Shown here: positions 1,617 to 63,714 of the stretch, piece by piece
Layout of the letters: the number at the start of each line of letters is the position of its first letter
Position numbering within the stretch: the first letter of the stretch is position 1
Assembly: GCA_041687335.1 (NCBI GenBank)
Contig: JAWLCE010000001.1
Location: 168,619-232,618 of the forward strand
Direction: 5' to 3'
Length of the DNA stretch: 64,000 bases
From: Sumerlaeia bacterium
Lineage (GTDB): Bacteria > Sumerlaeota > Sumerlaeia > MVZB01
Program-made: the position numbers and the translations under genes
The notes under the pieces: model-generated
What the model saw: only the letters and a program-made list of their open reading frames with translations
What the model was told of the DNA's origin: nothing
The model's database searches: none

Positions 1617-3092
1617 ATGTGCAGCGAATTGTTAAGAGTGGGCTGTGACATGAGGTTGGATTACAAGACGCTGGAGGTCATGCAGAAGCTCAACGCGGCC
1701 TGGCGGCTGTTGCAGTCACCTCATGCGCCGCTGGTGGCCAGCTTTCTGGACCGGGTTTTTCTGGAGCCCAACGTGCGGATGATGGGGCAGGCGGACCTGA
1801 GCGAAGCTCTCGAGGACACGCTGTTCACGCTGCGCGAACAGCGGCCGGGCGCCTACCCGAGGACCGCGCTCGAATACCTCAACGACTGGGCCGATAACGA
1901 GAAAGGCTGGTTGCGCAAGTTCTACGCGGCCGGCTCGGATGAGCCGCAGTTCGACCTGACGCCGGCGGCGGAAAAGGCGCTCAGTTGGCTGGCCAGCCTC
2001 GCCGAGCGCTCCTTCGTCGGCACCGAGTCGCGCCTGTTGACGCTGTTCGAGTTGCTGCGCCAGATGTCGGAAGGCAGCGAGACCGACCCACAGGCGCGGA
2101 TCGATGAGCTGGAGCGGCGCCGCGCCGAGATCGACGCCGAGATCGAGCGGGTCAAGTCGGGCGACATCCCGCTGCTCAACGAGACGGCGGTGCGCGACCG
2201 CTTTCAGCAGTTCCTGCAGTTGGCGCGCGAGCTGCTGGGCGATTTCCGCGAGGTGGAGCACAACTTCCGCCTGCTCGACCGCCATGTGCGCGAGCGGATC
2301 GCGCTTTGGGAGGGGGGCAAGGGCGCGCTGATCGAGCAGATCCTCGGCGAGCGCGACGCCATCGCCGACTCCGACCAGGGGCGCAGCTTCCGCGCGTTCT
2401 GGGAATTCCTGATGTCGCAGAGCCGGCAGGAGGAGCTGACGCGTCTGCTGGGGCGCGTGCTGGAGCTGCCGCCGGTCGCCGAGCTGCATCCCGACGCGCG
2501 GCTGCGGCGGGTGCATTACGACTGGCTGGAGGCGGGCGAGCACACCCAGCGCACCGTCGCCCGGCTCTCGCAGCAGCTGCGCCGTTTCCTCGACGACCAG
2601 GCGTGGCTCGAAAATCGGCGGATCATCGAGATTCTGCGCAACATCGAGTCGGCCGCGCTGGCGGTGCGCGAGGCGCCGCCGGCTGGCCCCTTCATCTCGT
2701 TCCCCGAAAGCTCGGCCGAGATCGAACTGCCGATGGAGCGCCCACTTTTCACCCCGCCGATCCGGCCGGTGCTGCCCGACCTGGAGCTGGAGGCGGGCGA
2801 GGCGGAGGTCGATCTGGCCGCCCTTTACGCCCAAGTCGCGGTGGACAAGCTCGAGCTGGAGGGCAACATCCGCCGCTCGCTGCAGGCGCGCAGCCAGGTC
2901 GCGCTGACCGAATTGCTGGCCGAGCATCCGCTGCGCCACGGGCTGGCCGAGCTGGTGGTCTATCTCCACCTGGCCGCCGAGTGGCCCCATGTGGTGGTGG
3001 ATGAAGAACGCGCAGATGTGGTGGAATGGTGGTCCGACGAAGGCACGGTGCGCCGCGCGCGCCTGCCGGGAATTCTTTTTGTCAGAAGCTGA
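1617..3092 (+). CDS. jetA: Wadjet JetA (DUF3375-like; MksF/kleisin-like subunit)
   Basis: A 491-aa ORF whose N-terminus (LDYKTLEVMQKLNAAWRLLQSPHAPLVASFL) matches the DUF3375 pattern as I recall it. It is first in a four-gene co-directional cluster with JetB, JetC and JetD. Its stop overlaps the jetB start (TGATG at 3090-3094). An alternative start lies at 1650. Confidence 0.8.
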   Translation: MCSELLRVGCDMRLDYKTLEVMQKLNAAWRLLQSPHAPLVASFLDRVFLEPNVRMMGQADLSEALEDTLFTLREQRPGAYPRTALEYLNDWADNEKGWLRKFYAAGSDEPQFDLTPAAEKALSWLASLAERSFVGTESRLLTLFELLRQMSEGSETDPQARIDELERRRAEIDAEIERVKSGDIPLLNETAVRDRFQQFLQLARELLGDFREVEHNFRLLDRHVRERIALWEGGKGALIEQILGERDAIADSDQGRSFRAFWEFLMSQSRQEELTRLLGRVLELPPVAELHPDARLRRVHYDWLEAGEHTQRTVARLSQQLRRFLDDQAWLENRRIIEILRNIESAALAVREAPPAGPFISFPESSAEIELPMERPLFTPPIRPVLPDLELEAGEAEVDLAALYAQVAVDKLELEGNIRRSLQARSQVALTELLAEHPLRHGLAELVVYLHLAAEWPHVVVDEERADVVEWWSDEGTVRRARLPGILFVRS

Positions 3093-3715
3093 TGATGGAT
3101 CCGTCCTTGGAAAATTCCACGGCCACCGCGCCGCAGCTTGGGCAGGTCGTCGTGCCGCTACTCAAGGGGGTGATTTACCGGGATGCGAATCCCGAGCCGT
3201 GGAAGGCGCTGCTCGCGCTGCAGATGACGGTGCGCGAGTATGTTGCCGTGCTCGGGCTCGAACTGGAGCTGGACGAGGCCGAGGGGTATGCCTTTCTTCG
3301 CTCGCGCTCGGGGGAAGTCGCCGAGCAGCCCGAGGCGCCGCGGCTGGTGGCGCGCCGCCAACTCTCCTTCCCCGTCAGCCTGCTGCTGGCGCTGCTGCGC
3401 AAGAAGCTGGCTGAATCTGACGCCGGCGGCGGCGAGACGCGGCTGGTTCTTTCCCGCGACCAAGTCGTTGAGATGATCCGCGTCTTCCTGCCCGAGGGGA
3501 GCAACGAGGCGCGGCTGGTCGACCAGGTCGATCAGCACATCAAAAAAATAGCCGACCTGGGTTTCGTCCAGGAGTTACGCGGGCCGGAGAAGGTCTTCGA
3601 GGTGCGGCGCATCATCAAGGCCTTTGTCGACGCGCAGTGGCTTGCCGAATTTGAGCAGCGGCTGGCCGCCTATCGCGACCATGCCGCCGGCCGGAGCGAG
3701 CAGGACGATGCATGA
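3092..3715 (+). CDS. jetB: Wadjet JetB (DUF4194-like; MksE-like subunit)
   Basis: About 207 aa, acidic and helical (VVVPLLKGVIYRDANPEPWKALLALQ...). It sits between the DUF3375-like gene and the SMC-like ATPase. Its start overlaps the jetA stop and its stop overlaps the jetC start. Confidence 0.8.
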   Translation: MMDPSLENSTATAPQLGQVVVPLLKGVIYRDANPEPWKALLALQMTVREYVAVLGLELELDEAEGYAFLRSRSGEVAEQPEAPRLVARRQLSFPVSLLLALLRKKLAESDAGGGETRLVLSRDQVVEMIRVFLPEGSNEARLVDQVDQHIKKIADLGFVQELRGPEKVFEVRRIIKAFVDAQWLAEFEQRLAAYRDHAAGRSEQDDA

Positions 3716-6700
3716 ACTGGAAGAGCTGAGCCTGGATTTCATCGCCGATGATACGCAGGCCGGTTTCCGGCTGCGCCGGCTCGAGGTCTTCAACTGGGGC
3801 ACCTTCGACGGCCGCGTCTGGACGCTACGGCTGGACGGGCGCAACGGGCTCCTGACCGGCGACATCGGCTCGGGCAAGTCGACGCTGGTCGATGCGCTGA
3901 CGGTCCTGCTCGTTCCAACTCAGCGCATCACGTTCAACCGCGCAGCCGGCGCCGACACCCGCGAGCGCACGCTGCGCAGCTACGTGCTCGGCCATTACAA
4001 GTCCGAGCGTAATGATCTTTCGGGCAGCTCGCGGCCGGTTGGGCTGCGCGATCACAACAACTACTCGGTCATCCTCGGCGTGTTCCACAACGAGGGCTAC
4101 CAGCAGACGGTGACGCTGGCCGTCGTGTTTTACTGGGGCCAGAATCCGCAGGGGCAGCCCGAGCGGCTTTATGTGGCGAGCGAGGGGGACCTCTCGATTA
4201 CGAGCGAGTTCTCGCGGTTCGGTTCGATCGCCGCGCTGCGCAAGCGGCTGCGCGCCGCGGGCGCCGAGTGCCACGACAGTTATCCGCCCTACGGCGCGTG
4301 GTTCCGCCGGCGTTTCGGCATCCAGAACGAGCAGGCGCTCGACCTGTTCTACCAGACGGTCTCAATGAAATCGGTGGGCAACCTGACCGACTTCGTGCGC
4401 GGGCACATGCTCGAGCCGTTCGCCGTCGAGCCGCGCATCAAGGCGCTGATCGAGCACTTCGACGATCTCAACCGCGCGCATGAGGCAGTGCTCAAGGCCC
4501 GGCGCCAGATCGAGCTGCTCACGCCGCTGGTGAATGATTCCGTCCGGCATGCCGAACTGACCGCCGAGACCGAACGGCTGCGCGGCTGTCGCGAGGCGCT
4601 CAAGCCATGGTTCGCAGGCCTCAAGGCCCTGCTGCTCGACCGCCGGATCGAGTCACTGGCCGAGGACGCCGCCCGCCAGCAGGCGAAGAACGACCGGCTC
4701 GAGGAGCGGCAGCGAGCGCTGCGCACGCAGGCCGTCGAGTTGCAGGCCAGCATCTTCGAGCAGGGCGGCAACCGGATCGAACAGCTCGAGCGTCAGATCG
4801 CGCAGCGGGAAATCGAAAAGCGGGCGCGACTGGAGAAACATGGGAGATACGTGGAACTGGCCGGGGCCGCCGGCATCGCGCCGGCCGATGGCGACGAGGC
4901 GTTTGTCGTGCAGCGGGGCGAGATCGAGGCACTGCGCGAGGCGGCCGCCGCACGCGAAAGCGAGCTGCAAAACGAGCTGACCGAGCAGGAAGTGACCATG
5001 CGCCAGGGGCGCGAGGAGCTGCGCCTGCTGACGGTCGAAATCGACAGCCTGAAGGCGCGCCGCAGCAACATCGACTCGACCCAGGTCAAAATCCGCGAGG
5101 CCTTGTGCGCCGCGCTGGGCCTGGAAGAGCAGGACCTGCCCTTCGCGGGCGAGCTGATCCGCGTGCGCGAGGAGGAGCGTGACTGGGAGGGTGCGATCGA
5201 GCGCGTCATGCGCAACTTCGGCCTGTCGCTGCTGGTGCCCGACGAGGAATACACGCGCGTGGCCGATTGGGTCGATCGGACGCACCTCAAGGGCCTGCTG
5301 GTTTACTTCCGCGTGCGGGGCGACGGCCGCGCGCCGATCCCCACGCCGCACGCGCACGCGCTGGCGCGCAAGGTCGACATCCGCCCTGAATCGCCCTTCT
5401 ATCCATGGCTCGAGCAGCGGATCGCGCAGCGCTTCGACCACGTCTGCTGCGCGACGCAGGAGCAGTTCCGCCGCGAGAGCAAGGCGATCACACGCGCCGG
5501 CCAGATCAAGGCCCCCGGCGAGCGCCATGAAAAGGACGACCGCCACCGGATCGATGATCGCGAGCGCTACGTGCTCGGCTGGGACAACCGGGACAAGATT
5601 GAGGCGCTGGAGCAGAAGGCTCGTTTGCTTGAAGCGAGCATCGCCACGATCGGCGGGCGCATCGCTGCACTGCAAAAGGAACAGCAGGCCATCAGTGAAC
5701 GGCGCGCGGCGCTTGACAAGCTCGGTGAGTATCGCAGCTTTCAGGAGCTGGACTGGAAGCCTGTTGCACTCGAGATCGAGCAGCTCAAGGAAGAGAAACA
5801 GCGGCTCGAGGCGGCCTCGGACCTGCTCAGGGCGCTGACGGAGCGGCTGCGCGCCGTCGAGGCCGACGAGACGGAGGTCAATCGCGAGATCAAGGAACGG
5901 ATCGCGAGGCACAGCTCATTCGTTGAGAAGCGGGCGGCGGCGGAGGAGTTGCGCCGGCAGGCGCGCGAGACGCATGAGGCGGGCGGCTCGCTGACTGGCC
6001 ACTATGACGCCCTCACTGCGCTGCGCGCCGAGGCGCTCGGCGACCGGCAGCTCACCGTCGAATCCTGCGACAGCCGCGAGCAGGAGATGCGCGAATGGCT
6101 TCAGGCCCGCATCGACGCTGAGGACAAGCGCCTGCAGCGGATGCGCGACCGCATCATCGACGCGATGCGCTCCTACAAGGAAGAGTTCAAGCTGGAAACC
6201 CGCGAAGTGGACGTTGCCATCGAGGCGGCCGGCGAGTACGGCGCGATGCTCAGCGAGCTTGTGGGCAACGACCTACCCCGCTTCGAGCGGCGCTTCAAGG
6301 AATTGCTCAACGAGACCGCCATCCGCGAGATCGCCAACTTCCACGGTCAACTGGCGCGCGAGCGCGAACAGATCCGCGAGCGGATCGACCGCATCAATGC
6401 CTCGATGACACAAATCGACTTCAACCCGGGCCGTTACATCCGGCTCGAAGCCGAGCCGACACACGACACCGAGATCCGCGACTTCCTCACCGAATTGCGC
6501 TCCTGCACCGAGGGCGAGCTGACCGGCTCGACCGACGAGGAATACACCGAGAAGAAATTCCTGCAGGTCCGCAAGATCATCGAGCGCTTCCGCGGCCGCA
6601 CCGGCCTGAGCGAGATCGACCGCCGCTGGACAACCAAGGTGACCGACGTGCGCAACTGGTTCGTCTTTGCCGGCAGCGAGCGCTGGCGCGCCGACGACAC

Positions 6701-7076
6701 CGAGGATCAGCACCATTCCGATTCCAGCGGCAAGTCGGGCGGCCAGAAGGAAAAGCTCGCCTACACGGTGCTGGCGGCGAGCCTGGCCTACCAGTTCGGC
6801 CTGGAGTGGGGCGAGGTCCGCTCGCGCTCGTTCCGCTTCGTCGTGATCGACGAGGCCTTCGGCCGCGGCTCGGACGAGTCGACCCGCTATGCGCTGGAGC
6901 TTTTTGCCAGGCTCAACCTGCAACTGCTGATCATCACCCCGCTGCAGAAGATCAACGTGATCGAACCCTATGTGGCCGCGGTCGGGTTCGTTCACAATCA
7001 GGAGGGGCGTGCCTCGGTGCTGCGCAACCTGACGATCGATGAATATCGCGCCGAGAAGGCCAGGGAGGGCGCGTGA
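3708..7076 (+). CDS. jetC: Wadjet JetC (SMC/SbcC-like ATPase; MksB-like)
   Basis: The N-terminal Walker A motif is GDIGSGKSTLVDAL. A ~900-aa E/R/L/Q-rich coiled-coil region follows. The C-terminus carries the signature and Walker B/D-loop (SGGQKEKLAYTVLAASLAY...FRFVVIDEAFGRGSDEST). The start ATG at 3708 lies within ATGCATGA, overlapping the jetB stop. Confidence 0.9.
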   Translation: MHELEELSLDFIADDTQAGFRLRRLEVFNWGTFDGRVWTLRLDGRNGLLTGDIGSGKSTLVDALTVLLVPTQRITFNRAAGADTRERTLRSYVLGHYKSERNDLSGSSRPVGLRDHNNYSVILGVFHNEGYQQTVTLAVVFYWGQNPQGQPERLYVASEGDLSITSEFSRFGSIAALRKRLRAAGAECHDSYPPYGAWFRRRFGIQNEQALDLFYQTVSMKSVGNLTDFVRGHMLEPFAVEPRIKALIEHFDDLNRAHEAVLKARRQIELLTPLVNDSVRHAELTAETERLRGCREALKPWFAGLKALLLDRRIESLAEDAARQQAKNDRLEERQRALRTQAVELQASIFEQGGNRIEQLERQIAQREIEKRARLEKHGRYVELAGAAGIAPADGDEAFVVQRGEIEALREAAAARESELQNELTEQEVTMRQGREELRLLTVEIDSLKARRSNIDSTQVKIREALCAALGLEEQDLPFAGELIRVREEERDWEGAIERVMRNFGLSLLVPDEEYTRVADWVDRTHLKGLLVYFRVRGDGRAPIPTPHAHALARKVDIRPESPFYPWLEQRIAQRFDHVCCATQEQFRRESKAITRAGQIKAPGERHEKDDRHRIDDRERYVLGWDNRDKIEALEQKARLLEASIATIGGRIAALQKEQQAISERRAALDKLGEYRSFQELDWKPVALEIEQLKEEKQRLEAASDLLRALTERLRAVEADETEVNREIKERIARHSSFVEKRAAAEELRRQARETHEAGGSLTGHYDALTALRAEALGDRQLTVESCDSREQEMREWLQARIDAEDKRLQRMRDRIIDAMRSYKEEFKLETREVDVAIEAAGEYGAMLSELVGNDLPRFERRFKELLNETAIREIANFHGQLAREREQIRERIDRINASMTQIDFNPGRYIRLEAEPTHDTEIRDFLTELRSCTEGELTGSTDEEYTEKKFLQVRKIIERFRGRTGLSEIDRRWTTKVTDVRNWFVFAGSERWRADDTEDQHHSDSSGKSGGQKEKLAYTVLAASLAYQFGLEWGEVRSRSFRFVVIDEAFGRGSDESTRYALELFARLNLQLLIITPLQKINVIEPYVAAVGFVHNQEGRASVLRNLTIDEYRAEKAREGA

Positions 7077-8263
7077 GCTGGACCACTCCCGCCGACATTC
7101 GTGCGCAGGCACGCCGGTTATGGGAGAGCGGGCGGCTGCCGGCCGCGCTGGTCACGGGAGAGGAGCTCTTCCCGCGCCGGCTGGTGCTGAAGAAACCCGG
7201 CTCGGGCGAGCTGGCCGAACAGTTCGCGCGGGTGCGCGGGTGGATCGACACACTGCGCAAGGGCGAGGCGGACGGCTACCGCATCCGCTGGCGCGAGTTC
7301 AATCATCGCGTGCTCGGCGTCAACTCGTTGCCCGACGAGATCTGGATCGATTCGACCGACGATGCGCTGCGCCTGATCGGCCAGCGCACGGCCGCCGCGC
7401 GACTGCGCGAACTGGCGGATCAGGCCCGGACGCGCCGGCCCGAGTTGCTCGCCTGGCTCGCGCGCCGTCCGCTGCGCGCGCTCGAACTGGCCCCGGACTG
7501 GCCGCGCCTGCTCGACATCGTCGACTGGCTGGCCGCCCACCCGCGCCCGGCCATTTACATGCGCCAGCTCGACCTACCGGGGGTGCACACCAAGTTCATC
7601 GAAGCCCATCGCGGCGCCCTCGCCGAGATGCTCGAGCTTGTGCTGCCGGCCGAGGCCGTCGATTGCGAGGCCTCCGGCATCGGCGGCTTCTGCCGGCGCT
7701 ACGGGTTTCGCGATCGCCCCCTGCGCGTGCGCTTCCGCCTGCTCGATCCCGCGCTGGCCGTCTTTCCCGGTGGCGGGGAGCAGGATATCACCGTCAATCA
7801 GGATGTTTTTGCCGCACTCCGCTTGTCGGTCCGTCGTGTCTTCATCACCGAGAACGAGATCAACTACCTCGCCCTGCCGCCGGTTTCGGCCGGCATGGTC
7901 ATCTTCGGCGGCGGCTACGGCTTCGAGATGCTGTCTGGCGCCGATTGGCTGCACGATTGCGCGGTGCATTACTGGGGCGACATCGACACTCACGGCTTCG
8001 CGATCCTCGACCAGCTGCGCGCGCGCCTGCCGCACGCGCATTCCTTCCTGATGGACCGCGAGACCCTGCTGGAACATCGCGCCCTCTGGGGCGAGGAAAG
8101 TCGGCCCGAAAAGCGCGACCTTCACCGGCTTACGCAGCCCGAAACAGCTCTCTATGATGACCTGCGTGAGGACCATTTGGCCCCGCGCCTGCGCCTTGAA
8201 CAGGAAAAAATCAGCTTTGACTGGGTCCGTCAAACTCTCAGCGGTCTCGGATTGATCGGTTGA
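7073..8263 (+). CDS. jetD: Wadjet JetD (DUF3322 N-domain plus DUF2220/Toprim-like nuclease domain; MksG-like)
   Basis: A 396-aa ORF with a GTG start overlapping the jetC stop (GTGA). The C-terminal region has a Toprim-like acidic motif (YWGDIDTHGFAILDQLR) preceded by ENEINYL. Its position and size fit JetD. Confidence 0.85.
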   Translation: MSWTTPADIRAQARRLWESGRLPAALVTGEELFPRRLVLKKPGSGELAEQFARVRGWIDTLRKGEADGYRIRWREFNHRVLGVNSLPDEIWIDSTDDALRLIGQRTAAARLRELADQARTRRPELLAWLARRPLRALELAPDWPRLLDIVDWLAAHPRPAIYMRQLDLPGVHTKFIEAHRGALAEMLELVLPAEAVDCEASGIGGFCRRYGFRDRPLRVRFRLLDPALAVFPGGGEQDITVNQDVFAALRLSVRRVFITENEINYLALPPVSAGMVIFGGGYGFEMLSGADWLHDCAVHYWGDIDTHGFAILDQLRARLPHAHSFLMDRETLLEHRALWGEESRPEKRDLHRLTQPETALYDDLREDHLAPRLRLEQEKISFDWVRQTLSGLGLIG

Positions 8264-11841: not shown

Positions 11842-12198
11842 TCGTCCAGATCGTCGTGGGCAACATCGGGCGCTCGTAGTGCGCGGGCGCGAGCCGGCGG
11901 GGGAGAGCTTCTCGCCGGCGCAATACGTCATCGACCGCCCCTGCGTAGCCAGCTCGCTGATGAGCGTCGCGCATTCGCGGGTGCTCGGCTCGGAACGGCC
12001 TCTGAAACCGCCGGATGCGATGCGACACCCACAAGATGGGCAGCGGGGAATTAGGGACACCCCCTATCTTCGTGTTGGAAGACGCCCCGATAGCAAGATG
12101 AACGTTTATAAAGTCATACTTGTGTCCGAAAAGACTTTCCAATCTAGATCAATATTCCACCCACAGCGTGAAATGCAGTGGAAACGAAAGGTGAGAAG

Positions 12199-13203
12199 AT
12201 GACCAAGGTTGCGATCAATGGCATGGGACGCATCGGCCGCGCCACCTTCAAGATCCTAATGGAGCACGAGACGCTCGAGCTGGTGGCGGTCAACGACATC
12301 GTGCCACCCGACAATATCGCCTACCTGCTCAACTACGACACAGTCTACGGCCGGCTGAATCAGCCAGTCAGAGCCGAAGGCGACGCGCTCGTGCGCAATG
12401 GCTTCCGCGTCCAAATGCTGGCTGAGAAGGATCCCGCCAGACTGCCGTGGAAGGAATTGGGCATCGACGTGGTTTTCGAGTGCACGGGGATCTTCACGAA
12501 GACCGAAGACCTGAAGAAGCACCTGGAGGCGGGGGCGCAGAAGGTGATCTTGTCGGCGCCGGTCAAGGATGAAGAGACGCCGATGGTCGTGCACGGGGTC
12601 AATGACCCGAAGGAAGGGCTGCGCGTGATCAGTTGCGCGAGTTGCACGACCAACTGCATCACGCCGGTGATGGAGATCCTCGGCCGGCGGCTGGGGATTC
12701 TCAAGGCGACCATGACGACGATTCACGCCTACACCTCGACACAGCAGATTGTGGACGGGCCGAGCAGGAAGTGGCGGCGCGGCCGGGCCGGGGCGATGAA
12801 TCTGGTGCCGACCAGCACGGGCGCGGCCAATGCCACAACGAAGGCGCTGCCGCAGTTTAGCGGCAAGTTCAATGGCGTGGCGGTGCGTTGCCCGGTGCCG
12901 GTGGGTTCGGTGGCGGACATTGTGGCCGTGAGCGAGCGGGCGACCGACGTCCAGGAGGTCAACCGGATCTTTCGCGAGGAGGCAGAGAGCACACGCTACC
13001 GCGGCATCCTCGGCGTCAGTGAGGACGAGCCGGTATCATCGGACATCATCCAAGACCCGCGCGCCGCGGTGATCGACCTGGCGATGACACAGGTGGTGGA
13101 TGGGGATCTCATCAAGGTGTTTGCCTGGTACGATAACGAGTGGGGCTACGCCAGCCAGATGGTGCGCGAGGCTGCGCATCTGGCGCAGCTGCACAACGCA
13201 TAG
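12199..13203 (+). CDS. gapA: glyceraldehyde-3-phosphate dehydrogenase, type I
   Basis: NAD-binding motif VAINGMGRIGR and the active site SCTTNCITP are present. A Shine-Dalgarno-like GGTGAGAAG sits before the ATG at 12199. Confidence 0.9.
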   Translation: MTKVAINGMGRIGRATFKILMEHETLELVAVNDIVPPDNIAYLLNYDTVYGRLNQPVRAEGDALVRNGFRVQMLAEKDPARLPWKELGIDVVFECTGIFTKTEDLKKHLEAGAQKVILSAPVKDEETPMVVHGVNDPKEGLRVISCASCTTNCITPVMEILGRRLGILKATMTTIHAYTSTQQIVDGPSRKWRRGRAGAMNLVPTSTGAANATTKALPQFSGKFNGVAVRCPVPVGSVADIVAVSERATDVQEVNRIFREEAESTRYRGILGVSEDEPVSSDIIQDPRAAVIDLAMTQVVDGDLIKVFAWYDNEWGYASQMVREAAHLAQLHNA

Positions 13204-23297: not shown

Positions 23298-24383
23298 TCA
23301 CTCGCCGCCCAGCCCAACCTGCTCGCCCTCGGCCAGACCGCTGATCACCTCGCGCCAGCCATCGATGACCGACTCGCCCAGCTTGACGTAACGCCGCGTC
23401 GGCGGCCCCTCGGCGGGCACCACCCAGACGAACTGATACTGGCCGATCTGCCGGATCGCCCCCACCGGCGCGAGCAACCGCCGCTCCTGGCCCGAGGGGA
23501 TCATCAGCCGCCCGAACATCCCCGGATATAAATCCGCCCGCTCGGGCAGCGCGACCTTGACCATCATCGAGCGCGAGCCCGGCTCGGCCTGCGGCACGAT
23601 CTCCTCGACGCGCCCCTGCACCGTCGTCGAGATCGCGTCCATGTGCACCGCCAGCGTCATCCCCGGCCGCAGCCCCGCCGCCAGCGATTCACGCACATAC
23701 GCCTCCAGCCGCATGCGCGCCGGGTCGTAAAGCTTGAGGATCGGGGTCCCCGGCATCGCCATGTCGCCGGGCTCAGCATAGCGATCGACGATCCGCCCAT
23801 CAAACGGCGCTTCGATGACCGCATAGCTGGCTCCGGCGCGCGATTCATCCAGCGCCTGCTCGGCGCGGCGCGCCTCGGCCCGGGCCGTCTGCAGCGCCGC
23901 CTCGGCGGCATCGAACTGGGCGCGCGGGATGACCTGTTCAGCGACCAGCGTGCGCATACGCTCGAACTCCCGCTCCGTCTCGGTCAGCCGCGCGCGCGCC
24001 GCCGCCAGCACCTGGCCCGCCTGCTGCTCGCGCGCCGCCAGGTCGCGACTGTCCAGCCGCGCCAGCACCTGCCCGCGCTCGACCCGATCCCCCGAGGCCA
24101 CCTCGATCTCGCCGATCATCGCCATGATGCGCGGGCTGACCAACGCCTCGCGCACCGCCGAGACCGTCCCCGGCGCGCGCTCGACCACCTGCTGCTCGAC
24201 CGCCCGCACGGCCACGACCTCCTCGAACGCGGGCGTCTCCGGCGCCGCCGCCTCAACCCTCCCCGGCTGCGTCTTGTCGGTAAAGTAACCCGCCAGCAGC
24301 GCGAGGATCAGCACCAGCAGGACCGCGCCGCCCAGCCAGAGGGCCAGAGTTTTAACGATGTTGAGGAGCTTCTCGGCTTTCAT
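23298..24383 (-). CDS. efflux transporter periplasmic adaptor (HlyD/membrane fusion protein family)
   Basis: An N-terminal TM anchor is followed by a coiled-coil (LAAREQQAGQVLAAARARLTETEREFERMR) and beta-barrel regions. A strong RBS AAGGAGA precedes the ATG at 24383. Confidence 0.75.
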   Translation of the reverse strand: MKAEKLLNIVKTLALWLGGAVLLVLILALLAGYFTDKTQPGRVEAAAPETPAFEEVVAVRAVEQQVVERAPGTVSAVREALVSPRIMAMIGEIEVASGDRVERGQVLARLDSRDLAAREQQAGQVLAAARARLTETEREFERMRTLVAEQVIPRAQFDAAEAALQTARAEARRAEQALDESRAGASYAVIEAPFDGRIVDRYAEPGDMAMPGTPILKLYDPARMRLEAYVRESLAAGLRPGMTLAVHMDAISTTVQGRVEEIVPQAEPGSRSMMVKVALPERADLYPGMFGRLMIPSGQERRLLAPVGAIRQIGQYQFVWVVPAEGPPTRRYVKLGESVIDGWREVISGLAEGEQVGLGGE

Positions 24384-24485
24384 TTCTGTCGTTCTCCTTG
24401 AGCGAGCGGATGGCGGGGTGGATACATGCGCAATGCCCGCCAGTTTGATATTATTCACGGCCTGTTTAACATTGTTAAAATCCGC

Positions 24486-24514
24486 TTGACTTTCATTTTG
24501 TTGAGTCATATTTT
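24486..24514 (+). promoter_or_regulatory. putative sigma70 promoter (TTGACT-N17-TATTTT) in AT-rich patch upstream of DUF2089-like gene
   Basis: TTGACT at 24486-24491 and TATTTT at 24509-24514 sit in a locally AT-rich intergenic stretch, ~20 nt upstream of the RBS AGGAGCG. Confidence 0.3.
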
Positions 24515-24539
24515 CATATTATTGAACCAGGAGCGTAAC

Positions 24540-24848
24540 ATGATTGATGGCATGCCAAGCTGGCTGACTGAATTGAACGAGGAGGAACTGAACTTCATCA
24601 AACGATTCCTCCTGCTGTCCGGTTCCTTGAAAAGCCTTGCCGCGGAATATGGGGTGAGCTACCCGACGGTGCGAGTCCGGCTGGACCGGCTGATCGAGAA
24701 GGTACGTGTACTGGATGAGCCGGCGCCGAAATCCCACATCCACCGCAGGCTGAAGCTGTTGGTCGCCGAAGGACGCATTGATACCGCGACGGCGCGCGCC
24801 ATCCTGCGCGCCCACGAAAAGACGCTTGCTGAGGAGACCGGGAAATGA
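24540..24848 (+). CDS. DUF2089-like helix-turn-helix protein (lacks the N-terminal Zn-ribbon)
   Basis: LTELNEEELNFIKRFLLLSGSLKSLAAEYGVSYPTVRVRLDRLIEKV resembles the DUF2089 HTH core as I recall it. RBS AGGAGCG before the ATG at 24540. Confidence 0.5.
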   Translation: MIDGMPSWLTELNEEELNFIKRFLLLSGSLKSLAAEYGVSYPTVRVRLDRLIEKVRVLDEPAPKSHIHRRLKLLVAEGRIDTATARAILRAHEKTLAEETGK

Positions 24849-55551: not shown

Positions 55552-57108
55552 TTATCGCCGGGCGTGCAGCGCATTCCCCGTGACCGGAATCCGGGCGCCG
55601 TGGAGCGCTTGGGCCGCCAGCGCGTCGCTGGCCCCCAGCAGCGAGACCCCATGGGCTGAGATCTCGGTGGCGCGCCGCCGCGTCAGCGGGTCCTCCAGCT
55701 CAAACCAGAACTGCACCGGACCCGCCTGCTCCAGTCGATAGACAATCCGCGCGACCGTGCCGCCCGGGTAGTTGATCGGCCCGCCCAGCGATCCCACCCC
55801 ATAATCGATCAGCCCCTGGTCGGCCACAACCTGGTTGGCTTCAAAACGGTCAAACGGGAAGCTGTCGTGAAAGTCGCCATCAAAAATATTCACGCCCAGC
55901 CGGATATAATTGTCCTCGTCGGCATCCAGGATGCTGATCCGCTCGGGCTGGTAGCGGATGCGGAAGCGCAGCCGGTCGAAGGCCGCCGAGGCGGGGTTGA
56001 GCAGCACCACGTCGGCCGTGCCGATCTCGCCCGGAGCCAGCTCGCCATGATTGGGAATGATGGCCAACCGCACGCGCTGCAGCGGGTCCAGTTCAGTCAG
56101 CTCCTGGCTGGCGCGCAGGTCCGCGACAAAGCGCGAGCCATACTGCTCGACCTGCTGCGGTTCGATGCGCAGCACCATCCGCATGGCGGCGACTCCATCG
56201 AGCAGGCGACTGTCGAGGATGTTGCGCTCGCCGACGTAGGCCCCCACCTCGGCCTCGGCCGGCGCGGACATATCCAAAGCCGACTGGACGGTCGCCTCAT
56301 GCGCCCGCCAGTGAATCTGCGCCAGCGGCTGGATCGCCTCGCGCATCGGCTCGCCCAGCCGGGCCACGATCTGCACAAGCCCCTCCTCACGCCAGACGCG
56401 CGTCTGGACCGGCTCGGCCGCCTGGGCCTCCAGCCACTGGGTATCAACCCAGTCGGGCTCAAGGATGCGGGGATTGTAGCGCACCCACAGCTCGACCCGC
56501 TCGACCGGTTCGGTCTCGCGATTGTAAAGGGTCAGGGTCGATGCAAAACGGTCGCCGACCTGGCCCTCGAAGGAGCTGGGTTCGAAAAATATCGCATTGG
56601 AACGGGCGTCGGCAGGGATCGTCAGCCCCGGCAGTTTCTCGGCGGGGGCGCCCCGGCGGGCAACGGCGCCGCCGGCGGGAGCCTGCCGGGTGATGGTGAC
56701 CCGCTCCTCGCCGGCGCGCGCGCGCTCGGCGCCCTCAGCGGCCGCCTGCGGGGGCGGCTGGCCCGGTCGAATCCCTTCCATCGTCCCATAGGCCGACGAG
56801 CCGCGCGTGCGACGCGAGGTGGCCCTGTCGCGGGTGGAGCGACTGGCTGTCTGGCCCGCCCGGCGATCGCGCAGCGACGAAGTGCGAGCCCGCGAGCCGG
56901 GTTCCATCTGGCCGAAGCTCGACCCGCCGAGACCACCCGGTCTGCCGCGGTCGCCCAAGCGCGACTCCCGCACCCCCGCGCCATTGGTCGGCTGTTCGTC
57001 CTGGGCCGGCAGCGAGCCCGAAAAGGTGGCCAACAGCGCCAGCCCTGCCGCCGGCAGCAGTCGCCGCAGCCGCGAAATGACGGTCATTCGATTGATTTTC
57101 CGCATCAC
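55552..57108 (-). CDS. secreted hypothetical protein, Arg/Gly/Ser-rich linker plus two cohesin-like beta domains
   Basis: A signal peptide (MTVISRLRRLLPAAGLALLATFSGSLPAQDE) and a low-complexity R/G/S region precede C-terminal repeated ~100-aa beta-rich units. The fold assignment is a guess. Confidence 0.4.
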   Translation of the reverse strand: MMRKINRMTVISRLRRLLPAAGLALLATFSGSLPAQDEQPTNGAGVRESRLGDRGRPGGLGGSSFGQMEPGSRARTSSLRDRRAGQTASRSTRDRATSRRTRGSSAYGTMEGIRPGQPPPQAAAEGAERARAGEERVTITRQAPAGGAVARRGAPAEKLPGLTIPADARSNAIFFEPSSFEGQVGDRFASTLTLYNRETEPVERVELWVRYNPRILEPDWVDTQWLEAQAAEPVQTRVWREEGLVQIVARLGEPMREAIQPLAQIHWRAHEATVQSALDMSAPAEAEVGAYVGERNILDSRLLDGVAAMRMVLRIEPQQVEQYGSRFVADLRASQELTELDPLQRVRLAIIPNHGELAPGEIGTADVVLLNPASAAFDRLRFRIRYQPERISILDADEDNYIRLGVNIFDGDFHDSFPFDRFEANQVVADQGLIDYGVGSLGGPINYPGGTVARIVYRLEQAGPVQFWFELEDPLTRRRATEISAHGVSLLGASDALAAQALHGARIPVTGNALHARR

Positions 57109-57117
57109 GTCACACCT

Positions 57118-58722
57118 TCATGGATTGACATAATCCATCTGCTGGGAGTGATTCCACGAGCTCGGATCAGGGGCGTCGGCCAGGTAATGGCAACCGCGGC
57201 TGGTGCGGTTCTGCAGCGCCGCATAAAGCACCGCCAACGCCGCCTGGACCCCATTTCGCAGGCCGATCAGGTCGTCGTCCAGTGCCGTGCGCCCATAGAA
57301 GGCCTCGATCTCCTGTTGCAGCTCCCGCAGGATCCGGTTGGCCCGTTGCATGCGCCGCTGGGTCCGGGTCAGGCCGACGTAGTTCCACATCGTGTACCTG
57401 ATGGTCATCCAGTCTTGCAAGATCAGTGCCGGATCGGCCGGCTCGCGCTCGGGCACCCACGGGTCGATTGGCGGCCAAGAGGGCGCCGACTGCTTGCGCC
57501 GGTCCATGATCGCCCCGGCCGCCCGCAACCCGAAGACCAGCCCCTCCAGCAGCGAGGTTGAGGCCAGCCGGTTCGCACCGTGCATCCCATTGCAGGCCAC
57601 CTCGCCCACCGCCCAGAGCCGGTCGATCGAAGTGCGGCCCTCCAGGTCGGTCATCACCCCGCCGCAGGAGTAATGCGCCGCCGGCACCACCGGGATCGGC
57701 TCGCTGGAGATATCGATGCCCAGCTTCAGGCACTGCGCGTGGATCGTCGGGAATCGCTCACGCACCCAGCGCGTCGGCTTGTGGCTGATGTCGAGCCAGA
57801 CGCAGGGCTCGCCGGTCTCGAGCATCTCCTGGTGGATGGCGCGCGCGACCACGTCGCGTGGCGCGAGCGACCCCAGCGGATGATGGCGCGCCATGAACTC
57901 ACTGCCGTCGCGCCGCACCAGCCGGCCGCCCTCCCCGCGCATCGACTCGCTGACCAGGAATCGCGGGGCATGAGGGTGATAAAGCGCCGTCGGGTGGAAC
58001 TGGACATACTCCACGTTCAGCAGTCGCGCCCCCGCGCGATAGGCCATCGCGATCCCGTCCCCGCGCGCCCCGTCCGGATTGGTGGTGTGCAGGAAAAGCT
58101 GGCCCAGTCCCCCCGTGGCCAGCACCGTGTGGCGGGCCATGATCGTCTCGACGCGGCAGGCATCGCGGTCGAGCACATAGGCCCCCACGCAGGTGTTGGG
58201 CTGATAAATGTCCAGCGGGCGGCGCGAGTGGTGCGAAAGGGTCAGAAGATCCACCGCCACCCAAGGCCGCAGCAATGTGATGCGGGGCTCCTCGTCGACG
58301 GCCCGCCACAGCGCCTCATGGATGCGCTGCCCCGTCCGATCCTCGCAATGCAGGATCCGCGGCACCGAATGGGCGCCCTCCTCGGTCACGTCATACTCGC
58401 CGTCGGGGCGGCGGTTGAAGTCGATGCCCAGCTCCTCGATCAGGACGCGCCGGACCGCCTCGGGACCCTCTTCGGCCAGCACCCTGGCCGCCGGTGGCCA
58501 GCTCAGCCCCGCCCCCGCCGTCACGATATCGCGCTCGAGCAGCTCGGGACTGTCGCCCGGCCCGGTATAGATGATGCCCCCCTGGGCCCAGCGCGTATTG
58601 GTGCGCTCGACGTCATGGCTGCGGTGCAGCATCAGCACCCGCGCGCCCGCCTGCGCCGCCTTGAGCGCCGTGATCGCCCCTGCAATCCCGCCTCCAATGA
58701 CGAGGACGTCTGTCTCGAGCAT
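57118..58722 (-). CDS. nadB: L-aspartate oxidase
   Basis: The N-terminus has FAD-binding DVLVIGGGIAGA. The active-site region (RPDGEYDVTEEGAHSVPR, HPTA) and typical length (~530 aa) are consistent with NadB rather than SdhA. Confidence 0.85.
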   Translation of the reverse strand: MLETDVLVIGGGIAGAITALKAAQAGARVLMLHRSHDVERTNTRWAQGGIIYTGPGDSPELLERDIVTAGAGLSWPPAARVLAEEGPEAVRRVLIEELGIDFNRRPDGEYDVTEEGAHSVPRILHCEDRTGQRIHEALWRAVDEEPRITLLRPWVAVDLLTLSHHSRRPLDIYQPNTCVGAYVLDRDACRVETIMARHTVLATGGLGQLFLHTTNPDGARGDGIAMAYRAGARLLNVEYVQFHPTALYHPHAPRFLVSESMRGEGGRLVRRDGSEFMARHHPLGSLAPRDVVARAIHQEMLETGEPCVWLDISHKPTRWVRERFPTIHAQCLKLGIDISSEPIPVVPAAHYSCGGVMTDLEGRTSIDRLWAVGEVACNGMHGANRLASTSLLEGLVFGLRAAGAIMDRRKQSAPSWPPIDPWVPEREPADPALILQDWMTIRYTMWNYVGLTRTQRRMQRANRILRELQQEIEAFYGRTALDDDLIGLRNGVQAALAVLYAALQNRTSRGCHYLADAPDPSSWNHSQQMDYVNP

Positions 58723-58859: not shown

Positions 58860-58938
58860 CGGACCACAATTGGCAGGTCGGGTCTGTAACCCGACAGGGG
58901 CTTCAGTGTCGGCTCGAAGAGCCGACCTACCCTCCCCG
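58860..58938. repeat. intergenic repeat element copy B (hairpin GTCGGCTC-GAA-GAGCCGAC at 58897-58915; second hairpin TCGGG-tctgtaa-CCCGA)
   Basis: Paralogous to 45711-45789. It lies between nadB (minus strand) and the tandem array (plus strand). Confidence 0.55.
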
Positions 58939-58959
58939 CTTACGAATCATTCACGTGGG

Positions 58960-58989
58960 GTTGACAACTTGGCCGCCGCGCTTGTCTAT
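58960..58989 (+). promoter_or_regulatory. putative promoter (TTGACA at 58960-58965, -10-like TCTATT ~18 nt downstream), duplicated at 60080-60109
   Basis: A perfect -35 hexamer is embedded in the duplicated leader. It is followed by the strong SD GAGGTGGGGG and an ATG 40 nt downstream. Confidence 0.3.
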
Positions 58990-59028
58990 TTATGGCTGGA
59001 AACGTGCGGCAGATGAGGTGGGGGACGA

Positions 59029-59709
59029 ATGAAATTCAGCCCGGCTCAAGAAAAAATCGTGCAGAGGGCAGGTCTCCTCATGATCCCGATGCTATTCATC
59101 GGCTGGGTCCTGTATTTTTTTCTCCTTCGCAAAATTCAATCCGCAGATGCCGATCTGCCGCTTGAGACCGCAATTTTCTGGATACGGGAATCCATCGTCT
59201 GGAGGAGACTTTTCATCCCTCTGCTGACGCTCAACCTGATCGGCATTTTTTGCACTCTGCTGGCCTTGTCCTCCGAGTCCCTCACTCAATTGAGACGGAC
59301 CTTTCTGAGCATGATCATGGCCCTTGGAATCTTGGTGTTACTCGCTTCTGTCTCACTCATGAATTTTCTAATTCAACACAGTATTCCTGAGGCCATCAGC
59401 AGCGTCTGGGATAATAACAGGGCCGTCAGTCTTGCGATCTATGAATACCACATGATCCACGGCAAGTATCCAGACTCCATTGATGATGTGGTGCCCTATT
59501 TAGATGAATATTTCAGCATTTACGATGCATTTACTGGTGGTCGCGAAAAACTCTGGATCGGTCATACGCCCCAATATGTTGGGCTTTTCAGCGTCGGGCC
59601 CGACATGGAGCGCACCAACGAAAAGGGAGCCGTGCCGACCATACACTATGATCCAACCAACGGCACATACAGCAGCGGCGATCTTGTGACCCGTATATCT
59701 GAGGATTGA
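59029..59709 (+). CDS. membrane-anchored pseudopilin-like protein, paralog 1 (3 TM + GspG-like C-terminal domain)
   Basis: Three hydrophobic helices are followed by SLAIYEYHMIHGKYPDSIDDVVPYL ... SVGPDMERTNEKGAVP ... DPTNGTYSSGDLV. This resembles the globular domain of type II secretion pseudopilins (GspG) but has no class III prepilin leader. Confidence 0.6.
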   Translation: MKFSPAQEKIVQRAGLLMIPMLFIGWVLYFFLLRKIQSADADLPLETAIFWIRESIVWRRLFIPLLTLNLIGIFCTLLALSSESLTQLRRTFLSMIMALGILVLLASVSLMNFLIQHSIPEAISSVWDNNRAVSLAIYEYHMIHGKYPDSIDDVVPYLDEYFSIYDAFTGGREKLWIGHTPQYVGLFSVGPDMERTNEKGAVPTIHYDPTNGTYSSGDLVTRISED

Positions 59710-59755
59710 CCATCCAGAACATTATCAGCAATCAGCCGGAGTGGAGTTCGTCATC

Positions 59756-59990
59756 ATGCGCGCAATCTGGATGATATGTCTGACGTCGGCGGTCATCGCG
59801 CTCGGGCCGGATTGCCTGGCGACAGTGCTGGGAGTTACAACGCCGGAGAGGTATCCTTGGCTATATGGCGATTGTCATGAATCCCTTTACTTGCGTTTGG
59901 GCCCCAAGCTGCGGACTTTTGTGTCGCCCGCAGCTTAAATGGCGCCCAACCGCGGCTGCCCGGCTCGAACAGATCCACCTAGGTGGTGCC
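59756..59990 (+). pseudogene. decayed 5' fragment of GH5 gene (copy 1 of duplication)
   Basis: MRAIWMICLTSAVIALGPDCL matches the signal peptide of the intact GH5 (MLRAIWMIGLTSAVMALGPGCL). Downstream, PTAAARLEQIHLGG matches PAATARLEAIQLDEDG but in a shifted frame. Similarity is then lost. Confidence 0.55.
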
Positions 59991-60147
59991 GACCCACCCT
60001 CCCCGCCCCGTGCTGCGGTCGCACGCGACGACGGATCAATTTCATGGTTTCATTCTCCATACGAATCATTCACGTGGGGTTGACAACTTGGCCGCAGCGC
60101 TTGACTATTTATTGGTGGAAACGTGCGGCAGATGAGGTGGGGGACGA

Positions 60148-60849
60148 ATGAAATTCAGCCCGGCTCAAGAAAAAATCGTGCAGACGGCAGGTCTCCTCAT
60201 GATCCCGATGCTATTCATCGGCTGGGTCCTGTATTATTGTCTCATTGGCATTATTCAAAACGCGAACGCCGATCTGCCGCTTGCGAACGCACATTTCTGG
60301 ATACGGGAATCCATGGTCTTGAGGAAACTATACATCCCCTTGCTGGCGATTTGCGTGATCGGCATTTTTGGCGCTAATCTGTCATTATCCTCTGATTCCA
60401 TCACCGAATCGAGACGGACCGTGCTGGACATGATCATAACGCTTGGGATTTTTTTGTTGCTCGGTTCTCTTTGGTTCATAAATGGACGGATTGAATCCAA
60501 CATCTATGAGGCCATCGGCTGCGTCGGGAATAATCACAGGGGCGTCAGTCTTGCGATCTATGAATATCACATAATCCATGGCAAGTACCCAGACACCATT
60601 GATGACGTGGTGCCCTATTTAGATGAAAATTTCAGCATTTACGATGCTTTTACCGGCGGTCGCGAAAAACTCTGGATCGATCAAACGCCCCAACATGTCG
60701 GGCTTTTCAGCGTCGGACCCGACATGGAGCGCACCAACGTAGAGGGAGCCGTGCCGATCATAGACTATGATCCAACCAACGGCACTTTCAGCAGCGGCGA
60801 TCTTGTGACCCGTATTGAGAACCCAGCAACTTGGCGGCATCAGCCGTAG
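60148..60849 (+). CDS. membrane-anchored pseudopilin-like protein, paralog 2
   Basis: Versus paralog 1, the N-terminal 30 aa are ~97% identical, the C-terminal domain ~85-90%, and the central TM2-TM3 region only ~55%. Confidence 0.6.
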   Translation: MKFSPAQEKIVQTAGLLMIPMLFIGWVLYYCLIGIIQNANADLPLANAHFWIRESMVLRKLYIPLLAICVIGIFGANLSLSSDSITESRRTVLDMIITLGIFLLLGSLWFINGRIESNIYEAIGCVGNNHRGVSLAIYEYHIIHGKYPDTIDDVVPYLDENFSIYDAFTGGREKLWIDQTPQHVGLFSVGPDMERTNVEGAVPIIDYDPTNGTFSSGDLVTRIENPATWRHQP

Positions 60850-60860
60850 TGGAGTTCCTC

Positions 60861-62006
60861 ATGCTGCGCGCAATCTGGATGATAGGTCTGACGTCGGCAG
60901 TCATGGCGCTCGGGCCGGGTTGCCTCGGGACGGGCGCTGCCCTCGGCCGATCGCCGGCCGCGACCGCCCGACTCGAAGCGATCCAACTGGATGAGGATGG
61001 GCTGCATTTCATCCGGTCCGGTTCGCGGGAGCGGTTCTTTGTCTGGGGGGTCAACTATGACCGCGACGATGCGGGGCGGCTGCTCGAGGATTATTGGATC
61101 GGGGAGTGGGCCACCGTCGAGGAGGACTTTCGCGAGATCGTTGCGCTGGGGGCGAATGTCGTCCGGATCCACCTGCAGCTGGGCCGGTTCATGGCGCAAC
61201 CCAACGCGCCCGATCCGCTGGCCCTGGCGCAACTGGCGCGCCTTGTGAGGCTGGCCGAGCAGACCGGGCTCTACCTCAACATCACCGGCTTGGGATGCTA
61301 TCACCGTCAGGACGTGCCCGACTGGTACGACGGCTTGCCGGAAGCGGACCGCTGGGCCGTGCAGGCCCGCTTCTGGGCAGCCATCGCCAGGACCTGCGCC
61401 GGCAGTCCCGCCATCATGTGTTACAACCTGATGAACGAACCGATCCTGCCCGGGCGAGACCCCGAATCCGATTGGCTGGCGGGCGATCTGGCGGGGAAGC
61501 ATTACGTCCAGCGGATCGCGCTGGACCTCGCCGGCCGCACCCGGGAGCAAGTCGCCCAGGCGTGGATCGACCGGCTGGTCGAGGCGATCCGCGAGCATGA
61601 CAGCCGGACCCTGATCACCGTCGGCGCCATACCCTGGGCCATGGTCTGGCCCAAGGCCAAGCCGATCTTCTATGACCCGGAGGTGGCGCGGAACCTGGAC
61701 TTCGTCAGCGTCCACATCTATCCCAAGGAGGGCGAGGTTGAGCAGGCGCTCGCCGCGCTCGCCGTCTACAAACTGGAGAAGCCCCTGGTCATCGAGGAGA
61801 TCTTCCCGCTCAATTGCAGCATCGAGCAGATCGAAACATTCATCGGCCGCTCCCGCGACCGGGTCGACGGCTATATCAGCTTTTATTGGGGAAAAACAAT
61901 CGAGGAATACGCGCAGGAAGAGGGGCTCACTGCCGCGATCATGCACAGCTGGCTGACATGGTTCCGCGAGCATGCCACAGCTACAGGCCCCGGTCTGGAT
62001 GGCTGA
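60861..62006 (+). CDS. glycoside hydrolase family 5 (cellulase-superfamily) lipoprotein/secreted enzyme
   Basis: A signal peptide with LGPGC is present. The GH5 catalytic acid/base region is CYNLMNEPILPG (NEP motif) and a nucleophile-region candidate is PLVIEEIFPL. Confidence 0.75.
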   Translation: MLRAIWMIGLTSAVMALGPGCLGTGAALGRSPAATARLEAIQLDEDGLHFIRSGSRERFFVWGVNYDRDDAGRLLEDYWIGEWATVEEDFREIVALGANVVRIHLQLGRFMAQPNAPDPLALAQLARLVRLAEQTGLYLNITGLGCYHRQDVPDWYDGLPEADRWAVQARFWAAIARTCAGSPAIMCYNLMNEPILPGRDPESDWLAGDLAGKHYVQRIALDLAGRTREQVAQAWIDRLVEAIREHDSRTLITVGAIPWAMVWPKAKPIFYDPEVARNLDFVSVHIYPKEGEVEQALAALAVYKLEKPLVIEEIFPLNCSIEQIETFIGRSRDRVDGYISFYWGKTIEEYAQEEGLTAAIMHSWLTWFREHATATGPGLDG

Positions 62007-62304
62007 AATCGTGCTGAAGCGCGGCTGACCTTGATTCTCATTCATTTCGCAACGGTCGCGGAGAACTCAGGAAAAGAACTCAAAGGGTACGTGACATCAT
62101 GAACAGCGTATTGGGTCTGGGAAATCATGATTCAATTCCTGCCTTTGCGACCTTTGGTCATTTCCTCTGCGCCTTTGCGATAAAAAACATGAAGGTTCAG
62201 TTGGACTGAAAAATGGACACGTCTCTGCTTGACAGCCTGCGGCCGCGCTTCCAGACTCGTTCGATGCCCGCGCCTGCGCCGGCCATGCCACCAGGGAGCT
62301 TCAG

Positions 62305-63339: not shown

Positions 63340-63714
63340 TTAATTGAGATCCACAATTGATTTAACTGGATCGCCTCCCGAGTTGCCAACAAGGATGACA
63401 CAATCATTTTTCAGAACCATCACAACCAAGTGGTCTTTTCCTTGCTGAAAATATGTTATTTCAGAGTTCGGCACGCCAAGATCTCCCATTTCCAGCACGC
63501 GCGCATAAAATTCATCCGGTGATGGGAGATCCCCATTAGTATTAACATACTGCTGTATATCATTCTTGATGGCATCGAGATATATCAAAGCATGTATTCT
63601 ACGGCAGTGATGAGATGTTCCCCTTGACACATGTCCACACGGATGCTTCACCGTGCACGAAGTCGTGAAACATGTAAAGATGAGAACGATTAAAACGCTG
63701 GGTATTCTTTTCAT
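63340..63714 (-). CDS. hypothetical lipoprotein encoded by an AT-rich (~40% GC) gene
   Basis: A lipoprotein signal (LIVLIFTCFTTSC) is present. GC content drops sharply relative to the ~67% flanks. The start overlaps the stop of the upstream sensor kinase (ATGA at 63711-63714). Confidence 0.5.
   Translation of the reverse strand: MKRIPSVLIVLIFTCFTTSCTVKHPCGHVSRGTSHHCRRIHALIYLDAIKNDIQQYVNTNGDLPSPDEFYARVLEMGDLGVPNSEITYFQQGKDHLVVMVLKNDCVILVGNSGGDPVKSIVDLN

Follow-up and report, generated by a model that had tools for sequence, protein, structure and literature searches.

Two tandem genes, here called A and B, lie in a stretch of 64,000 nucleotides (nt) from a Sumerlaeia bacterium (contig JAWLCE010000001.1 of assembly GCA_041687335.1; hereafter the window) and encode pseudopilin-domain proteins that are near-identical at the start, similar at the end and strongly diverged in a central membrane segment. 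Two components account for this striking mosaic, a difference in protein-level constraint and a single short tract that was homogenised, and tests on silent sites tell them apart. A constrained C-terminal domain, a near-neutral membrane anchor and a gene-conversion tract at the 5' end, all following a tandem duplication, make up an explanation to which we assign a probability of about 0.65. A and B are pseudopilin derivatives: in place of the class III signal peptide they have two extra transmembrane (TM) helices, and what used to be the assembly helix has become TM3. The evolutionary pattern of the mosaic is ordinary and calls for no exotic mechanism, while the three-TM, non-cleavable pseudopilin architecture is rare and constitutes a modest curiosity.

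The coding sequences of A and B align without gaps through codon 223 (223 codons). Amino-acid identity between the copies is 96.4% over residues 1-28, 52.9% over residues 29-130 and 87.0% over residues 131-222, and the corresponding nucleotide identities are 98.8%, 74.2% and 92.0%. A preliminary description of the sequence had put the three values at about 97, 55 and 85-90% by eye, and both these figures and its coordinates were accurate. When the ungapped A/B alignment of 754 nt was scanned by maximum chi-square with two breakpoints and 200 permutations, the breaks fell at 59115 (codon 30) and 59423 (codon 132), with a difference rate of 25.9% between the breakpoints and 5.8% outside. Since the chi-square of 60.7 lay above all 200 permutations (maximum 27.5), the heterogeneity of divergence is far beyond chance, and the non-uniform pattern described beforehand holds under this recombination-breakpoint check. 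The central difference consists of 80 substitutions in 309 nt with 0 indels; as only substitutions are present in a gap-free alignment, the frameshift that had been named as a possible trivial cause is excluded, and both open reading frames (ORFs) are intact.

Substitution rates were estimated by Nei-Gojobori counts and by a purpose-written pairwise likelihood model of the Goldman-Yang type, which agreed with each other. For the central segment (codons 30-132), the synonymous rate (dS) was 0.37, the nonsynonymous rate (dN) 0.33 and their ratio (omega) 0.90, no different from 1 (p=0.72). For the C-terminal domain (codons 133-223), dS was 0.21, dN 0.055 and omega 0.27, below 1 (p=0.0035). Equal omega for the two parts was rejected (p=0.022), whereas an equal synonymous rate was not (p=0.15). 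Among codons specifying an identical residue in both copies, synonymous changes were found in 0 of 24 in the 5' block, 11 of 52 in the central segment and 11 of 78 in the C-terminal domain, with p=0.34 for the latter two. Because omega differs while equality of the synonymous rates is not rejected, what sets the central segment apart from the C-terminal domain is protein-level constraint and not age or recombination history, and the C-terminal domain is still 87% identical owing to purifying selection, its silent sites having diverged normally. The 3' breakpoint, at codon 132/133, falls where the family-conserved domain begins (R131 is invariant), and within that domain the replacements between A and B affect alignment columns that are variable in the family (entropy 2.94 vs 1.91, p=6e-4). 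In the central segment, sub-zones are 41-64% identical, divergence is about the same in the loops and in every helix, and TM3 with its adjoining linker is the most diverged (41-46% identity). Such divergence is what is expected for a loosely constrained membrane anchor at a dS of about 0.25-0.35.

The 5' block, consisting of 88 nt of upstream sequence and codons 1-29, displays the signature of gene conversion, namely a tract with lower silent and non-coding divergence and a sharp edge unrelated to a functional boundary. Its upstream part (58941-59028 vs 60060-60147) is 95.5% identical with 4 differences, in agreement with the near-identical upstream regions reported at the outset, and the whole block contains 5 differences in 175-176 nt (2.8%). 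No synonymous change occurs in the 24 degenerate codons of codons 1-29, where dN is 0.015. The dS of 0 in the block differs from 0.29 for the rest (p=0.002), and 4 of 100 neutral-type sites differ in the block vs 12 of 65 four-fold sites elsewhere (p=0.003). The edge is abrupt, with only 1 difference in the 120 nt of 58997-59116 and then 11 in the next 32 nt, and this 5' breakpoint (about 59115-59117, codon 29/30) falls inside TM1, off any structural or domain boundary. Most likely, the block was homogenised recently by non-allelic gene conversion over a short tract of about 175 nt. Copy 1 of the block carries TTGACA at 58961 and a GAGGTG Shine-Dalgarno sequence; an Rfam scan of the block gave no match, and its RNA folding was unremarkable (z +1.0 and +0.7), so that neither accounts for the nucleotide identity of the block.

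Gene conversion homogenising the ends had been suggested in the preliminary description; if it had acted on both, the central segment would display the true, older age of the duplication. The rise of dS from 0 in the 5' block through 0.21 in the C-terminal domain to 0.37 in the central segment is consistent with it, as is a 3' flank that is just 11.6% diverged between the copies. However, equality of the two parts in synonymous rate and in identical-residue codon counts is not rejected, the low divergence of the C-terminal domain is mainly an effect of dN (0.055 vs 0.33), its replacements avoid family-conserved columns, and the breakpoint lies at a domain boundary as constraint predicts. Conversion was thus retained for the 5' block and given up for the 3' end, where dS is ordinary and omega low, and homogenisation of both ends is regarded as unlikely.

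Diversifying selection on the TM2-TM3 segment as a partner- or ligand-specificity module, another mechanism initially considered, is quite unlikely. Sliding-window dN/dS between the copies did yield nominal omega values of 1.1-1.9 in some 30-codon windows (codons 11-70), and radical replacements (R34G, K35I, I49H, L77N, F113G, L114R and W127G) are present. Nevertheless, the windows above 1 rest on only 2.5-4 synonymous changes, the nominal signal does not extend to the segment-wide omega, divergence is even across loops and helices, and distant relatives of the same architecture are almost unconserved in the TM part. No evidence was found for a variable specificity region of a membrane receptor, the most diverged stretch being a degenerate former prepilin helix with the features of a relaxed anchor. 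Recombination that brought the central segment of a third paralog or a diverged allele into one copy would account for the sharpness of both transitions in divergence; it is very improbable, as the window holds no third paralog, searches of 5.8 billion and 1.84 billion proteins brought up no closer relative, the GC content at third codon positions (GC3) of the central segment is 0.612 in each copy, and central dS is not significantly raised. An artefact, either an assembly chimera of strain variants or a compensated frameshift, is hardly credible: the source is a 340.7-kb NCBI contig whose closest relatives are all metagenome-assembled genomes (MAGs) and repeats 85% identical can be mis-joined, but 0 indels over 754 nt with an in-frame nucleotide identity of 74% exclude a frameshift, and the units differ in their flanks, the relic 5' end of a cellulase-family (GH5) gene, the 236-nt unique spacer and the 3' tails, which is unexpected for a collapsed or duplicated assembly.

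Several points weigh against the explanation by constraint plus a 5' conversion tract. The comparison comprises only two sequences and no outgroup, so that changes are not polarised and site-wise positive selection is outside the reach of the test; an omega of 0.9 could conceal positively selected sites mixed with constrained ones. At 0.37, dS is nominally higher in the central segment than in the C-terminal domain (0.21); should more data make this gap significant, a greater age of the central segment or a second conversion, older and covering the C-terminal domain, would be favoured. Selection on the promoter, the translation-initiation region and the signal-anchor could be behind part of the 5' identity, and a promoter consensus scan of the conserved upstream block found no sigma-70 consensus. 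In addition, the contig probably stems from a metagenome assembly.

The pseudopilin relationship, which the preliminary description had also put forward, is borne out by remote homologs and profile comparisons. Scanned directly against Pfam, NCBIfam, PHROGs and PADLOC, A and B gave nothing meaningful, and a word-seeded search of 5.8 billion proteins returned A and B only. An exhaustive phmmer search of 1.84 billion representatives produced 98 matches, all but one of which include residues ~130-224; the exception (P0008) is a repetitive membrane-segment match. A few of the matches reach N-terminally to about residue 100, and one (P0060) extends to residue 37. They have the motifs YS[VI]GPD and YDPTNGTxSxGD in common, and PF08334 (T2SSG) is present in some of them. 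A profile of the domain retrieved 1,828 proteins, many containing PF07963 together with PF08334, named GspG and often belonging to Candidatus Sumerlaeota, and matched solved GspG/PulG structures in the PDB at E 9e-5. In hhalign, A and B aligned over residues 90-221 with 18 canonical prepilin-type members (probability 98.5%, E 2e-15), colinear from mature position +1, with RTFLSMIMALGILVLLASVSLMNFL against the canonical FTLIELLIVVAIIAILAAIAVPNFL. Pairwise BLAST against the pseudopilin of a neighbouring genome recovered the YDPTNGT motif only.

As the alignment begins at mature position +1, the most diverged part of the proteins is the former pilin assembly helix. In the hhalign register, G(-1) corresponds to R89, +1 to R90, and E(+5) to S94 in A and D94 in B; with these residues at the key positions, the prepilin peptidase site is gone, and neither copy has a class III prepilin signal peptide or a match in a PF07963 scan. 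Hydropathy peaks at ~13-36, 56-83 and 88-117 indicate three membrane helices in both copies. AlphaFold2 (AF2) with a 48-sequence alignment gave a model at pLDDT 80, containing helices 5-38 and 45-79, a continuous helix 86-144 and then a small sheet; with two sequences only, pLDDT was 53. The long continuous alpha-helix typical of the fold is therefore present at 86-144 (pLDDT 70-96) and is colinear with canonical alpha1. The divergence of TM3 would fit a loss of filament packing and assembly.

The following course of events is proposed for the locus. A tandem duplication of about 0.9-1.1 kb in a Candidatus Sumerlaeota chromosome would have copied the upstream region, the whole pseudopilin-domain gene and the start of the GH5 gene, and the copies have by now reached a dS of about 0.25. 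TM3, once a prepilin assembly helix, has lost its peptidase site and presumably its packing role, two TM helices now preceding it; the central segment, evolving at about the neutral rate, probably serves as a membrane anchor only. Purifying selection on the probable GspG-type globular domain holds codons 133-223, and a gene-conversion tract of about 175 nt, ending in TM1, may have homogenised the 88 nt upstream and codons 1-29.

Features of the A/B locus, in window coordinates
Feature	Positions	Strand	Description	Basis
Gene A	59029-59709	+	226 aa; three hydrophobic helices followed by a probable GspG-type pseudopilin globular domain	ORF, hydropathy, AF2, hhalign
Gene B	60148-60849	+	233 aa; tandem paralog of A, 72% amino-acid identity	ORF, alignment
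Near-identical 5' block, copy 1	58941-59115	+	Codons 1-29 and the 88 nt before them; proposed gene-conversion tract	
Near-identical 5' block, copy 2	60060-60234	+		Alignment
Diverged central segment of A	59116-59424	+	Codons 30-132: end of TM1, loop 1, TM2, loop 2, TM3, start of alpha1C	
Diverged central segment of B	60235-60543	+	Codons 30-132	
TM3 of A	59296-59373	+	Residues 90-115; residue-for-residue with canonical mature N-terminus FTLIELLIVVAIIAILAAIAVPNFL	hhalign
Globular domain of A	59425-59697	+	Codons 133-223; motifs FSVGPD and YDPTNGTxSSGD	
Globular domain of B	60544-60816	+	Codons 133-223	
Duplicated unit, copy 1	58941-59823			Alignment
Duplicated unit, copy 2	60060-60931			Alignment
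GH5 5'-end relic behind A	59731-59823	+	Ribosome-binding site and signal-peptide codons; 89% identical to 60839-60931	
Spacer between units	59824-60059		236 nt, junction	
GH5 (cellulase-family) gene	60861-62006	+	Signal peptide; Pfam PF00150 E 5e-14; GC3 0.83, like that of the host	
nadB	57118-58722	-	Divergently transcribed; flanks A on the side away from B	

Each duplicated unit contains the 88 nt before the start codon, the entire gene, and the ribosome-binding site and first ~24 codons (~70 nt) of GH5. The relic of GH5 behind A marks the 3' edge of the unit, and the two GH5 5' ends translate as IMRAIWMICLTSAVIALGPDCLAT and MLRAIWMIGLTSAVMALGPGCLGT. The relic also opens a frame of ~60 codons (59756-59938) with GGAG and ATG, starting with the signal-peptide sequence MRAIWMICLTSAVIALGPDC, which could be translated as a small exported peptide. 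Compared with either flank, the spacer gave alignment scores inside the shuffled range, with the exception of a 19-nt motif, GCCGACCYACCCTCCCCGC, at 59988-60006, which matches 58921-58939 on direct reading and lies 1 nt upstream of the copy 1 block and 53 nt upstream of the copy 2 block. Beside this motif stand a 7-bp hairpin GTCGGCT…AGCCGAC (58908-58926) upstream of A and, at the corresponding place upstream of B, a perfect 12-nt palindrome, CCACCTAGGTGG (59976-59987). Indels between the copies, one of 10 nt and three of a single base, occur only just past codon 223; the 10-nt indel gives A and B different tails and puts the B stop 12 nt before the GH5 ATG. B and the GH5 gene, in the same orientation, are probably co-transcribed.

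Proteins of the full A/B architecture are scarce. With a profile of that architecture, A, B, P0060, P0087 and P0214 were the only matches in 5.8 billion proteins, P0082 being a further three-TM protein with the pseudopilin domain, and genome and metagenome contigs scanned with the A/B alignment revealed no relatives. Relatives of nadB assign the window to Candidatus Sumerlaeota: the best match, 79% identical, comes from a MAG and is followed by Sumerlaeota MAGs. Orthologs of A, B and the GH5 gene are absent from all 80 loci syntenic around nadB. The closest related locus (L001) carries a canonical prepilin-type member of the YDPTNGT family (5155-5811) immediately upstream of nadB; that gene likewise lies within a local GC dip. 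A and B have a GC content of 0.49 and a GC3 of 0.60, compared with a GC3 of 0.83-0.87 for nadB, GH5 and a methyltransferase gene, which suggests a foreign origin or at least an atypical composition; no tRNA genes and no meaningful inverted or terminal repeats flank this low-GC island. Scanned with Pfam, 31 further ORFs of the window showed no machinery domains of a type II secretion system (T2SS) or type IV pilus (GspD/E/F/O, PilB/C/D/Q). Sumerlaeota MAGs are reported to contain type IV pilus genes in all cases and GH5 cellulases in some (PMC8092238). A literature search turned up no work on pseudopilins in Sumerlaeota, nor any on conversion between paralogous pseudopilins.

Further features of the window were recorded in passing. 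Its GC content is 65.5%, with additional low-GC patches (<52%, 300-nt windows) at 1351-1650, 12051-12350, 24251-24750 and 61951-62250. A Wadjet-type (JetABCD) anti-plasmid system occupies 1617-8263 and includes DUF3375 (JetA, E 6e-160), a 1150-aa SbcC/AAA_29 protein (JetC) and JetD (DUF3322 plus JetD_C). The lowest GC of the window (0.42; GC3 0.42) belongs to a 124-aa ORFan at 63340-63714 (-), which begins with a lipoprotein-like signal (…LIFTCFTTSC), directly follows a histidine-kinase gene (HATPase_c) with an ATGA overlap, and has no match in Pfam, NCBIfam, PHROGs or PADLOC. A protein of 518 aa encoded at 55552-57108 (-) lacks any Pfam domain, has an N-terminus of low complexity rich in R/S/G, and is conserved downstream of nadB in four related Sumerlaeota-like loci (39-44% identity).

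In A and B, the N-terminal assembly helix, as a rule the best-conserved element of a pilin-fold protein, no longer has its processing motif; it lies behind two added TM helices and evolves approximately neutrally. The two proteins offer a natural instance of a pseudopilin domain put to new use as a module permanently anchored in the membrane. Most of the remote homologs (P0003-P0099) are 580-690 aa long and have two tandem C-terminal pseudopilin-like domains, and others fuse the domain to a BlaR1-type M56 peptidase (P0005, 1037 aa). From these tandem and M56-fused forms, the pseudopilin-like domain seems to be a widely reused extracytoplasmic module outside true pseudopilins, and such fusions to membrane proteins suggest roles beyond filaments in Sumerlaeota-like bacteria. 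It may further be imagined, as a long shot, that the three-TM proteins form a distinct, very rare class of pilin derivatives that never leave the membrane, where they dock with or regulate a machine resembling a pilus or T2SS, or the exported GH5 enzyme probably co-transcribed with B. The fast-evolving TM2-TM3 segment would then set partner specificity, and the duplication would have given two functionally distinct anchors.

Compared with the major T2SS pseudopilins GspG/PulG/EpsG, represented by Pfam PF08334 (T2SSG) with PF07963 (N_methyl) and by PDB entries 1t92, 5o2y and 4lw9, A and B are without a class III signal peptide, carry ~88 residues with two extra TM helices before the helix and an additional YDPTNGTxSxGD motif, and are not matched directly by Pfam T2SSG. 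With the prepilin-type, GspG-like YDPTNGT family they have in common the globular signature SxGPD ... YDPTNGTxSxGD and the colinear alpha1 helix. However, members of this family (the L001 gene, P0165, P0172, P0193 and P0212) keep K/R-G-FTLIELL and are 140-220 aa long with one TM helix, whereas A and B have three and a degenerate prepilin motif. Among the family matches whose source is named, no phylum other than Candidatus Sumerlaeota appears. By position, the L001 gene is no ortholog of A and B, as its orientation relative to nadB is opposite. The metagenomic proteins P0060, P0214, P0087 and P0082 resemble A and B in architecture and length (197-244 aa) and align colinearly, at 20-24% identity over the full length and ~33% in the C-terminal domain alone, with the TM part barely conserved. 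P0060 and P0214 lie near one end of short contigs (5.2 and 7.9 kb), on whose visible part there is no second copy, and their neighbours, an HDOD/HD protein and an FG-GAP protein, differ from those of A and B.

Mosaic similarity between pilin-fold paralogs is also known from pilE and pilS of Neisseria, where it arises partly from non-reciprocal recombination between the copies. A and B are likewise mosaic, yet their polarity is inverted: in classical pilins the N-terminal helix is conserved and the C-terminal globular part is variable. Moreover, A and B have no silent cassettes and give no evidence of programmed variation or positive selection. As for the homogenised tract, partial conversion in tufA/tufB and in rRNA operons leaves short, sharp-edged, near-identical tracts within diverged duplicates. 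In A and B, a single such tract of ~175 nt covers the upstream region and 29 codons, and the comparison of just these two sequences suggests the mechanism.

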